Positions 26,301 through 29,300 of a DNA stretch of 64,000 nt are shown piece by piece; the first letter of the stretch is position 1; each line of letters begins with the position of its first letter. Location of the stretch: NCBI GenBank assembly GCA_051294905.1, contig CM119371.1:31994001-32058000 (forward strand), given 5' to 3'. The DNA is from Botryllus schlosseri (taxonomy: Eukaryota). Both the position numbers and the translations under genes were made by a program. Under the pieces are notes generated by a model. It was given only the letters and a program-made list of their open reading frames with translations. It was not told where the DNA came from and searched no databases.

Positions 26301-29300
26301 CTGTCTACTCAGATTGCAAGAACGGGACTATTCCGTGCCGACAACGGAGCATATCCATATCGAATGGTTTGGCCATTCAGCATCGGTCATTTTTTGGCCG
26401 AGGTTTTGTCGACGCTTATGTTTTGGCACCGCATTTTATCAGCGGTGTGTTGGCCAAAACTTTACGTCTTCATGTGACCCGACGCAGAAGGGGTTGGCCT
26501 CGTAATGAATGAGTCTCATAGACCTGAACTCGCTCGTTGCACATCCCTAGTCCCTATCAGTGTTGGGATCAAGTCACTACCTTCGAGTCACGAGTCATCT
26601 CGAGTCATTGCACATTTTGACTCGAGTCAAGTCATTCGATTTTCGAAGGTGACTCGAGTCAAGTCAAGTCACTCGATTTTTGGAGGTGACTCGAGTCAAG
26701 TCGAGTCAAGTCAAGTCAAGTCACGAGTCAAGTCACGATTCAAGTCAAATTGGATTTTCGAAGTATGAGTGATGATGTAAAGTCATTAAATTTTGCCAAC
26801 TTGGTGAAAGACAGATTAATTGGACATTTATGTTGCATCAAATTACAAATATAAAGTTAAATATACATGCAAAAAGGCGCTGTATCGCTCACGCACACTT
26901 AGAACTGCTAATAAAATACTTGAGTAACTGCTGCGTGTAGATACATGCTACAGTCTGTTTATTATCAACCAAAATAGCGGATCGAATACGAAGCCTCGAG
27001 AAGTCGTAACAAATTGATATGTTACAGTATCCTACACTACCCATCTACACATCTGCGAGAATATAAACACATAAACGATGTTCGTTCGATTTAAATTATA
27101 CCAGAGGGTTGGTAAAGGTGGGCGCTGCGTACTGAGCATTGAGAAACAAAGATACGTTGCGATTGGATTAATCCACTACTGCTACGACAACGGAAGTTGT
27201 GATCGTTTCGTTTGCGGTCAATTTGCAATCAGTAAATGACTGGTTGCCCTCACAAGTGACATCGGCGTATCGCGAACAATCCGAACATATATAAAAAAGG
27301 GTGATTTAATCGACACCATTTAGTTGATGACTTGAAATTGATTCGTTAATTTTGCTCCGAGTCACGAGTCAATTGACATTTTTGAAGCGCCGAGTCCAGT
27401 CAAGTCAAGTCATTTTTACAAAGTGACTCGAGTCAAGTCAAGTCATACGAAAATGTTGACTCGAGTCATCCCAACACTGGTCCCTATACTAGTTCATCCC
27501 AACGGTCTTCGACCATGTTTTCCAGAAAAACCAGTCGGACAAATCTTATAATGAATTCTCATGATAAAGCCATATTTTCTGCGCGTCTCGCTTATTGGCT
27601 ACAGTAGGCGACCCAACACCGTTACCTTAGATTTGTAAAAACTATCGCAGGATTTTTTGCAATAAATTCAACAAACATTACATACATATTACCAGAGAGC
27701 ACTGGCACCGACTCTACCCAAAATTGTACCTGCTGCGGTCCATACTTTAATAACCGTTGAAGGGGTAAAAGTTTGCGTTACAGTAACTTGCAAATGTGAT
27801 TCTGTAGCCTAATGATGGCATTTACTACTATCCTCGTGCCTCGCACTAATCGAACAGTTATTACGAAAGTATGATGATTGTTTAGCAAAAGAAAGCGGAA
27901 AGTCCCTTTGACGTCATTTTTCCAGCCTGTCGCAGGCTCAGACGGGCTTATATGCTGTATGTCTGCCACTACACAACCTTCCAAACCAGGCTTTAGGTTA
28001 CATAATAATTATAGGGCGAAAATATTAATTCAGTACGGCTTGTGAGAGCTACGATTAGTGGTGCGTCGTAAGCTAATCAAGTTTTTACAATTGCGTCGCA
28101 ACAACAAAAGTTACACTGCCCTTGAATTTTCCATTAGGTTTATTTGAATTATTCAAGGTCAGAAAAATTACCAATTATTATTCACGATTTTCATTCGCAC
28201 TCATCCGGGATTTTCATTCGCACCGTTCGCACCACCTTCGTCATTCGCGCTGCAATTTTTTTCATTCGCACAAGTGCGAACCGTCACACAGGTTGAAAAG
28301 CACTGTGCTATACAATTGTATATTGAAGTTCTGTACCTCAAAGATGCTATTCAATTCTCTACTGGCTGCTGACAATTACCCCTGACTAGTGTCAGCCGAA
28401 AATATTCTGGTTCATTTCAATATCACTATGCTATTCAATTGTATATTGAAGTTCTGTACCTCAAAGAAGCTCTTCAATTGTCTACCAGCTGCTGACGATT
28501 ACCCCTGACGAGTGTCAGTCGAAAATATTCTGGTTCATTTCAATATCACTATGCTATTCAATTGTATATTGAAGTTCTGTACCTCAAAGAAGCTCTTCAA
28601 TTGTCTACTAGTTGCTGACGATTACTCCTGACGAGTGTCAGCCGAAAATATTCGCTTTCATTTCAATATCAATATGAATGTGCTATACAATTGTATATTG
28701 AAGTTCTGTACCTCAAAGATGCTCTTCAATTGTCTACCAGTTGCTGACGATTACTCCTGACGAGTGTCAGTCGAAAATATTCTGGTTCATTTCAATATCA
28801 CTATGCTATTCCATTGTATATTGAAGTTCTGTACCTCAAAGAAGCTCTTCAATTGTCTACTAGTTGCTGACGATTACCCCTGACGAGTGTCAGCCGAAAA
28901 TATTCGCGTTCATTTCAATATCACTACGCTATTCGATTGTATATTGAAGTTCTGTACCTCAAAGATGCTCTTCAATTCTCTACTGGCTGCTGACGATTAC
29001 CCCTGAAGAGTGTCAGCCGAAAATATTCGGGTTTATTTCATGGATTTATCATTAATTTGATGCTGAATTTGAGATTATGTCGGAGCTGGATTTTGATTTC
29101 AACTTGGAAATAACATTTATAATCATTCTTATTCCCGTACGCTTGCTAACAAATTTCAGCCATTACCAGATTTTGATTTCGCTTTAGAAAGGAAACGGAA
29201 TCAACTACAAATTTCAAACTTGGAGCAGGGTCAGGACTTAAAAATATCAAGGAGAGCTTACTGCAATTCCATTCGTCCGACCCGTCGGTGCATTCTTCCA

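Follow-up and report, generated by a model that had tools for sequence, protein, structure and literature searches.

The systems closest to the locus presented here include the minimal pLTR hammerheads of metazoan Penelope-like elements (Cervera and De la Pena 2014, PMC4209133), which are type I ribozymes with a short stem I and a dimer-type palindromic stem III, are positioned at element ends, and occur mostly as dispersed truncated copies (some as opposite-strand pairs). Their helix II is long (7-8 bp in Schistosoma, at least 3 bp in the rows of Fig. S3 that were examined) and an extra base follows A9; in Drosophila willistoni a Penelope hammerhead family is also encountered as a large tandem repeat (supplement of PMC4209133). 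Canonical endonuclease-positive Penelope-like elements (RT plus C-terminal GIY-YIG) have truncation, inverted pieces and tails as the described signature of their insertions (Craig et al. 2021, PMC8557442). Non-LTR retrozymes (Cervera and de la Pena 2020, PMC7229834; Li et al. 2026, bioRxiv 10.64898/2026.07.22.740005) are composed of short AT-rich tandem units that each contain a type I hammerhead, and their circles are stably self-paired and 170-400 nt long (PMC7229834); Li et al. propose that retrozymes are born via local amplification of a Penelope terminal repeat, and report that one of the nine dimers tested by them cut. In pseudoknotted hammerheads (Perreault et al. 2011, PMC3088659) a loop II/stem II-stem I helix replaces the non-canonical contacts, and a stem II of 1 bp is there compatible with fast cutting. 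Chrysoviruses and fusariviruses have type I hammerheads (PMC13725137) with a helix II of 1-2 bp and a cut site a few nt ahead of a start codon (7 nt for one of them).

The locus lies in a 64,000-nucleotide stretch of the Botryllus schlosseri genome (hereafter the window) and is probably a tandem repeat of a Penelope-like 3' end (a hammerhead plus the first ~18 ORF codons), which DNA-level events likely amplified in place and whose self-cleavage into monomers is unlikely. It shares the traits listed above for the pLTR hammerheads of PMC4209133, and departs from those examined by its helix II of 1 bp, by having no extra base and by a loop that can pair upstream. With canonical Penelope-like elements it has in common the 5' truncation, an adjoining inverted piece, a post-repeat tail and partial tandems (PMC8557442), and its tail matches the N-terminus of their proteins, whereas its unit is repeated seven times; the tail reaches ~70 nt past the cut, as against a published extension of 30-40 bp that is measured from a different point (PMC8557442). 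The array resembles the retrozyme birth route of Li et al. (bioRxiv 10.64898/2026.07.22.740005) and its units are likewise short, AT-rich and each furnished with a type I hammerhead, yet at 123 or 129 bp they fall below the 150-450 bp given for retrozymes (PMC7229834; Li et al. accept shorter ones), their hammerhead is non-canonical, they hold ORF codons, and most of them are broken. The array motif is type I, belongs to an animal retroelement and has a dimer-type stem III, whereas the 1-bp example of Perreault et al. is a metagenome type II hammerhead assayed with a stable stem III (PMC3088659); the viral hammerheads differ from it by their long helix III and by being monomer-active, reportedly without clear loop-loop contacts (PMC13725137).

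Layout and surroundings of the array

Tandem-repeat analysis (TRF) delimited a repeat at 28301-29040 (period 123, 6.0 copies, 91% matches), in which six hammerhead cores begin at 28382, 28505, 28628, 28757, 28880 and 29003, at spacings of 123, 123, 129, 123 and 123. A loose hammerhead pattern matched the window 22 times (overlapping matches being tallied separately) against 4.2 +/- 3.1 expected, and none of 100 shuffles got to 22. The six units that an earlier note on this DNA had placed at 28306-29040 are borne out by the TRF result and the core spacings; a seventh, at ~25238-25394, had been missed, being severed from the others by an insertion, and the whole array comprises seven units (~25238-29040), starting ~3 kb before 28306. 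Excision of the insertion together with one 8-mer regains a 129-bp spacing. The parts of the array are:

25198..25222, minus strand: degenerate inverted tail copy adjoining the 5' end of unit 0 (weak match, 84% over 25 nt)
25238..25394, plus strand: unit 0, a 5'-truncated parent-element end; hammerhead carrying C3>G, its stem I holding a C-C mismatch; the ORF's first codons up to the insertion
25395..28305, no strand assigned: non-autonomous hAT-like DNA insertion of 2911 bp with 15-bp perfect terminal inverted repeats, separating unit 0 from unit 1
28306..28419, plus strand: unit 1, with the remainder of the ORF start, the junction, and a hammerhead with G8>U and a stem I mismatch (core 28382)
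28420..28542, plus strand: unit 2, core 28505 intact, stem I pair 1 broken
28543..28665, plus strand: unit 3, core 28628 intact, two pairs of stem I broken
28666..28794, plus strand: unit 4 (129 bp), core 28757 intact, stem I pair 1 broken; ATG and 18 Penelope-like codons at 28674-28727
28795..28917, plus strand: unit 5, core 28880 intact, stem I pair 2 broken
28918..29040, plus strand: unit 6, the sole complete motif of the array (intact core and full stem I)
28967..28977, plus strand: unit junction (example from unit 6), where the end of the ORF-start tail passes into pre-hammerhead sequence via a short look-alike stretch
28989-28995, plus strand: predicted knot strand of unit 6
28999-29002/29029-29032, plus strand: stem I of unit 6
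29003-29009, plus strand: core of unit 6
29010/29018, plus strand: stem II pair of unit 6, closing loop II (29011-29017)
29022-29027, plus strand: palindrome of unit 6, with the predicted cut after 29028

These assignments agree with the earlier note in the core mutation of unit 1 (G8>U), in the full stem I found in unit 6 alone and in the predicted cut after C29028. Its view of position 7 as free (C in most units, A in unit 6) holds in that the second family described below also has A there, but within the Botryllus family C makes up 96% of the depth in a DNA run, and unit 6 owes its A to a private change. The ATTGAAG/CTTCAAT hairpin that it had ascribed to every unit lies across the boundary between units, does not pair perfectly in unit 1 and is missing in the predicted folds; we set it aside as a functional part, one of its arms being ORF codons and the other crossing the junction, which makes it a junction by-product. 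Unit 0 is distinguished by ~55 nt of upstream element sequence that is missing from the other units and agrees with the loose-end consensus of the family reads. The translation of the inverted piece at 25198..25222 looks like the ORF start, a Penelope-type inverted structure.

The 2911-bp insertion is bordered by an 8-bp target duplication (TGCTATAC, at 25387-25394 and 28306-28313), and we take it to be hAT-like on account of its CAG ends and this duplication; the seven frames scanned in its interior gave no Pfam match. Nested inside it is another element, with an 8-bp duplication of its own. On the minus strand the array is flanked by LDL-receptor class A/EGF-type coding stretches (five of the 21 frames scanned), among them:

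23674-23751, minus strand: LDL-receptor class A coding stretch (Pfam PF00057)
29263..29382, minus strand: LDL-receptor class A coding stretch beside the array (Pfam PF00057)

The array is likely intronic and antisense to a host gene predicted from these frames; since the LDL-receptor-type exons at either side of it are on the minus strand, the host pre-mRNA would bear the non-catalytic strand.

Penelope-like ORF start and dispersed copies

Downstream of the hammerhead, positions 28674-28727 encode an ORF-start peptide (ATG plus 18 codons) that shares a KFCT-containing stretch with the start of two full-length RT and GIY-YIG proteins (P0028 and P0029; 9/15 identities with P0028, pairwise E 1e-4). 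When four such proteins were searched against the whole window with tblastn at default settings, five of the six hits at E<1 were array units, all of them weak (E 0.19-0.99). Family reads end after about codon 18, and many break at the position of the unit junction; one unit is made up of a terminal-repeat end, the hammerhead and an ORF start (the first ~18 codons). An endonuclease-positive Penelope-like ORF (RT plus C-terminal GIY-YIG) is present in relatives, the Botryllus family being known by its first 18 codons, and no parent RT/endonuclease ORF was found in the window, where family copies are short. The Penelope link draws on the 18-codon homology together with the second family, because the copies in the window are all short and carry no parent ORF. 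An origin from the Naiad 'HHR_core' was set aside, the related proteins having their GIY-YIG at the C-terminus.

Beyond the array, the window contains nine more copies of the family, on both strands and with ragged 5' ends:

24598-24697, minus strand: older dispersed copy with an oppositely oriented tail at 24728-24777 (whole 24598..24780)
30436-30566, plus strand: dispersed copy with core G8>A and an inverted tail at 30408-30437
32760..32888, minus strand: dispersed copy with complete motif
36333-36368, minus strand: family remnant
37284-37310, minus strand: family remnant
48452-48510, plus strand: family remnant
50223..50462, no strand assigned: two dispersed copies, head-to-head
60301..60441, plus strand: dispersed copy

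Across the ten insertion sites in the window, inverted tail pieces stand at the 5' ends of three copies (unit 0 included) and there is one head-to-head pair; 5'-truncated copies, adjoining inverted pieces and a tail are what is found in endonuclease-positive Penelope-like elements. The summed depth over the core reached ~1.07 million in DNA run X1, a figure that is no copy number, as compared to 14-18 on unique flanks. Together with the density in the window (one copy per ~6 kb), this depth suggests that the family amounts to tens of thousands of copies genome-wide. The family majority has GGG following the cut site (93-96% at the two listed sites, DNA run), which is found in one of the seven array units.

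The hammerhead motif in two families

The type I order CUGANGA, GAAA, UH is found in five of the seven units and in the family majority. Unit 6 and the family majority have a full stem I, which is broken in the six other units, and stem II consists of one G-C pair that closes a 7-nt loop, with no extra base between positions 9 and 10.1. The earlier note had called this architecture typical of Penelope-linked hammerheads; the 1-bp stem II departs from the published ones examined, which have a long helix II and an extra base between positions 9 and 10.1, and the long form was carried by 7 of the 15 distant Penelope-like loci examined. A search against Rfam, proposed earlier as a check, returned no hammerhead, either at the gathering score over the whole window or at E<=10 over 28000-30800.

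In all seven units, loop II can pair at each of its seven positions with a strand situated 8-14 nt upstream of the core. Treated as a simple helix, this knot has an energy of -6.1 to -8.5 kcal/mol; a core-burying hairpin formed by the same loop has one of -2.2 to -6.0. No predicted fold displayed the hammerhead, the folding programs omitting pseudoknots. The palindrome of stem III (AAUAUU) is unstable, its duplex being worth just -0.2 kcal/mol. The upstream CUGACGA was considered as an alternative core and rejected: in both families it has neither the G10.1-C11.1 pair nor a stem I.

A generic form of the pattern was found at 121 loci of metagenome contigs (9 of 64 parts scanned), of which 105 belong to one diverged animal repeat family with a homologous motif, the 16 others being left aside; as the scan covered 9 of the 64 parts, more such families may exist. 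The ORF start of this second family reads MNLLLHAIFKFCTTKRLF, at the place that matches the ORF start of the array, and over the corresponding DNA 35 of 54 bases are identical. At one of its loci (L077) a GIY-YIG frame (E 1e-4), whose longer relatives carry RT, ends ~190 nt upstream of the hammerhead. The hammerhead lies in a Penelope-like terminal repeat, with the N-terminus of an ORF following it in the array and its homologue following a GIY-YIG frame in the second family; on these two grounds the Penelope derivation suspected in the earlier note is upheld. The predicted cut precedes the AUG by 20 nt in the array (from unit 3 to unit 4) and by 3 nt in the second family.

The exact pattern of the Botryllus family gave no match in the metagenome or the viral contigs, the knot-specific pattern none in viral contigs, phage records had no match either, and the 120 matches of the generic pattern in viral contigs included none that combined knot, palindrome and stem I; the viral contigs likewise yielded no Penelope-like relatives.

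Comparison of core and flank conservation across genomic copies, suggested in the earlier note, is a weak test, because inserted copies decay neutrally; the comparison between families is informative and was run instead. The second family has A at position 7 and U at position 17, retains the layout of the motif, shows a compensatory change in stem I and has AAGCUU as its palindrome. One both-sided change apiece separates the families in the knot, in stem I and in the stem III palindrome. Over 16 aligned sequences 97% of the knot cells are paired (25-37% in slid controls), and 90 of the 93 second-family matches with enough upstream sequence (the duplicate locus L077 being left out) retain all seven knot pairs; this covariation amounts to two lineages with one event per helix, and relatedness inflates such scores. 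We consider the pseudoknot between loop II and the upstream strand likely, as a structural model of these pairings. There is hardly any variation in the central knot pairs, which may alternatively have been retained for pairing with the core.

Judged from sequence comparison, the motif is likely a new variant of the Penelope hammerhead that is common to a second animal family. In the literature we found no Penelope element that combines a 1-bp stem II with a pseudoknot, although the fold may already be described by Lunse et al. 2017, who treat small variants of the Penelope hammerhead. [quoted passage not shown] Stem III would form just between two copies, via the 6-nt palindrome, which would make cutting slow and dimer-dependent, and the 5' end produced by cleavage would lie a few to ~20 nt ahead of the ORF's AUG.

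A motif with a stem II of one pair and a stem III close to nil, in which both the core-burying hairpin and a GAAA/UUC hairpin are favourable, may also descend from a hammerhead and no longer cut even in intact elements, the loop II pairing then representing an off-state or a protein-binding fold. The published record can be read in the same direction, as viral type I hammerheads with a 1-bp helix II are slow (~0.01 per min, PMC13725137) and eight of the nine Xenopus dimers tested showed no cleavage (bioRxiv 10.64898/2026.07.22.740005). We nevertheless regard such a loss of activity as unlikely: all core bases, the freedom of position 7, the UH triplet, stem I and the palindrome are preserved across the two diverged families, and a natural type II hammerhead with a 1-bp stem II and a pseudoknot cuts at >1.2 per min (PMC3088659).

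Proposed processing and probable history of the tandem

The earlier note had proposed that a plus-strand transcript of the array processes itself into ~123-nt monomers or circles. In its full form this would make the array an active non-LTR retrozyme, transcribed from the plus strand, self-cleaving as dimers and re-inserted by Penelope enzymes, a reading that we consider very improbable. The tandem layout, the type I core, the palindromic stem III and the five intact cores (of seven) are what it would call for, units down to 51 bp and a pLTR origin have been reported for retrozymes (bioRxiv 10.64898/2026.07.22.740005), and family reads occur in both RNA runs. However, the substrate strand of unit 6 alone pairs fully with any core, yet a monomer takes two cuts; in the six other units stem I is broken in the first two pairs past the cut, whichever unit gives the enzyme half, and when core, stem I, palindrome and knot were all filtered for, unit 6 alone passed within the array. 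The would-be ~123-nt circle is poorly self-paired, folding no better than shuffles (z -0.5 to -1.2). Furthermore, unit 0 retains upstream sequence of the parent, absent from a circle-templated insert, and the junction is found in none of the nine dispersed copies in the window.

In two raw cDNA runs (of which 6% and 3% were read) the family reads are plentiful and on both strands, but those at least 99% alike number 12 of 3134 and 102 of 10623, unique flanks and host exons are at almost zero depth, and no read ends are piled at 29028 or 30528, a result that is weak evidence, such libraries losing small circles. Read joints that 'go back' were discarded as signs of circles, the reference unit being permuted and ordinary copies running from hammerhead to tail; most of these joints are also seen in the DNA run. 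On the broken stems I, the fold of the circle and, weakly, the read ends, self-processing into monomers or circles finds no support here, and the array, six of its units being mutated, is probably a remnant in decay and not a producer of RNA circles.

As to how the tandem arose, the junction is identical in all six downstream units, no target duplication was found for the array, and the units differ at 3-12 of 108 sites in a mosaic manner (four-gamete test: failures at 20 of the 45 informative site pairs); identical junctions and mosaic units fit a single duplication with unequal exchange and conversion thereafter. The sequence ATTTCATG, present at both ends (25246 and 29035), was dismissed as a target duplication, its 5'-side copy being element sequence. 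Dispersed copies also show several of the unit variants and both length types, an overlap that fits several RNA templates as well as conversion.

One retrotransposition event could also have laid all units, through repeated RT template jumps or a multi-unit master element, without later DNA expansion. Partial tandems are normal for Penelope-like insertions (PMC8557442), and the mosaic units, with variants and length types common to dispersed copies, would be accounted for; the six junctions, though, fall at one base and share a minority tail letter (~13% of the family at 28961), where independent jumps would be expected to vary, and we hold this origin to be quite unlikely. Under the local amplification that we favour, a 5'-truncated element would have inserted into an intron in antisense orientation relative to the host gene, a single duplication would have joined the element tail to a look-alike stretch just before the hammerhead, unequal exchange and conversion would have expanded and shuffled the units, and a DNA transposon would later have landed between the first two of them.

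The array as such is ordinary, tandem repeats of Penelope ends being already in print; it provides a nucleotide-level case of such a birth, in which the parent flank, the junction and the ORF start are still legible. We argue that the motif is the more useful of the two, as it escapes Rfam despite the tens of thousands of copies that the depth estimate suggests, and differs from the Penelope consensus in print. It may serve as a test of how Penelope hammerheads, which are poor cutters in vitro, get stabilised, and of whether the hammerhead cut is linked to translation of the ORF. Tentatively, and as a possibility to which we attach limited confidence, an animal Penelope-like clade may possess a compact, dimer-dependent hammerhead in which the entire 7-nt loop II, by pairing with a duplicate of the core located upstream, releases the core from a self-blocking hairpin, in which a cut 3-20 nt before the AUG would set a translatable 5' end, and whose arrays would be retrozymes at birth.

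Elements interrupting and flanking the array

The array of seven 123/129-bp units, each carrying a hammerhead motif and the start of a Penelope-like frame, contains a hAT-like insertion with an 8-bp duplication, in which a second element, bounded by an 8-bp duplication of its own (26550-26557 / 27480-27487), is nested:

25395-28305, hAT-like insertion
26558-27479, nested second element

The ends of the nested element recur many times across the window, which also holds the following coding frames and long minisatellite families:

674-4174, + strand, LINE-type element; open frame of 1166 codons with endonuclease/exonuclease/phosphatase and RT domains
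15370-16470 and 20658-21749, - strand, two intronless rhodopsin-family GPCR frames
33583-35362, 39180-39687, 44250-45321 and 50623-51351, minisatellites of 6-nt-rich units with higher-order periods

For the rhodopsin-family frames one database relative was found (50% identity). Another high-copy repeat occupies 29620-29950 (summed DNA depth 2-6 x 10^5), and encloses the single read-start pile-up listed, at 29799.

Related and distant hammerhead loci

In the second family (a diverged animal repeat family with a homologous hammerhead, represented by metagenome contigs), the AUG lies three bases past the predicted cut and shares sequence with the stem I 3' strand (positions 57-63 of locus L001). 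At locus L077, an inverted pair of this family adjoins frames (1800-4935) that look similar to the genes for integrase and capsid in Polinton-like elements. Hammerhead variants with a U3 core and a long helix II were observed in four distant Penelope-like loci (L242, L248, L251 and L252); these were placed in bacterial bins, a placement that likely reflects eukaryotic contamination.

A core substitution within the family

Three family copies, one in the array (28387) and two on the - strand (24598-24641 and 36333-36368), have in common a G8>U substitution in the hammerhead core. A change at a CpG would more usually yield A. The recurrence of G8>U may denote a subfamily or a mutational hot spot.
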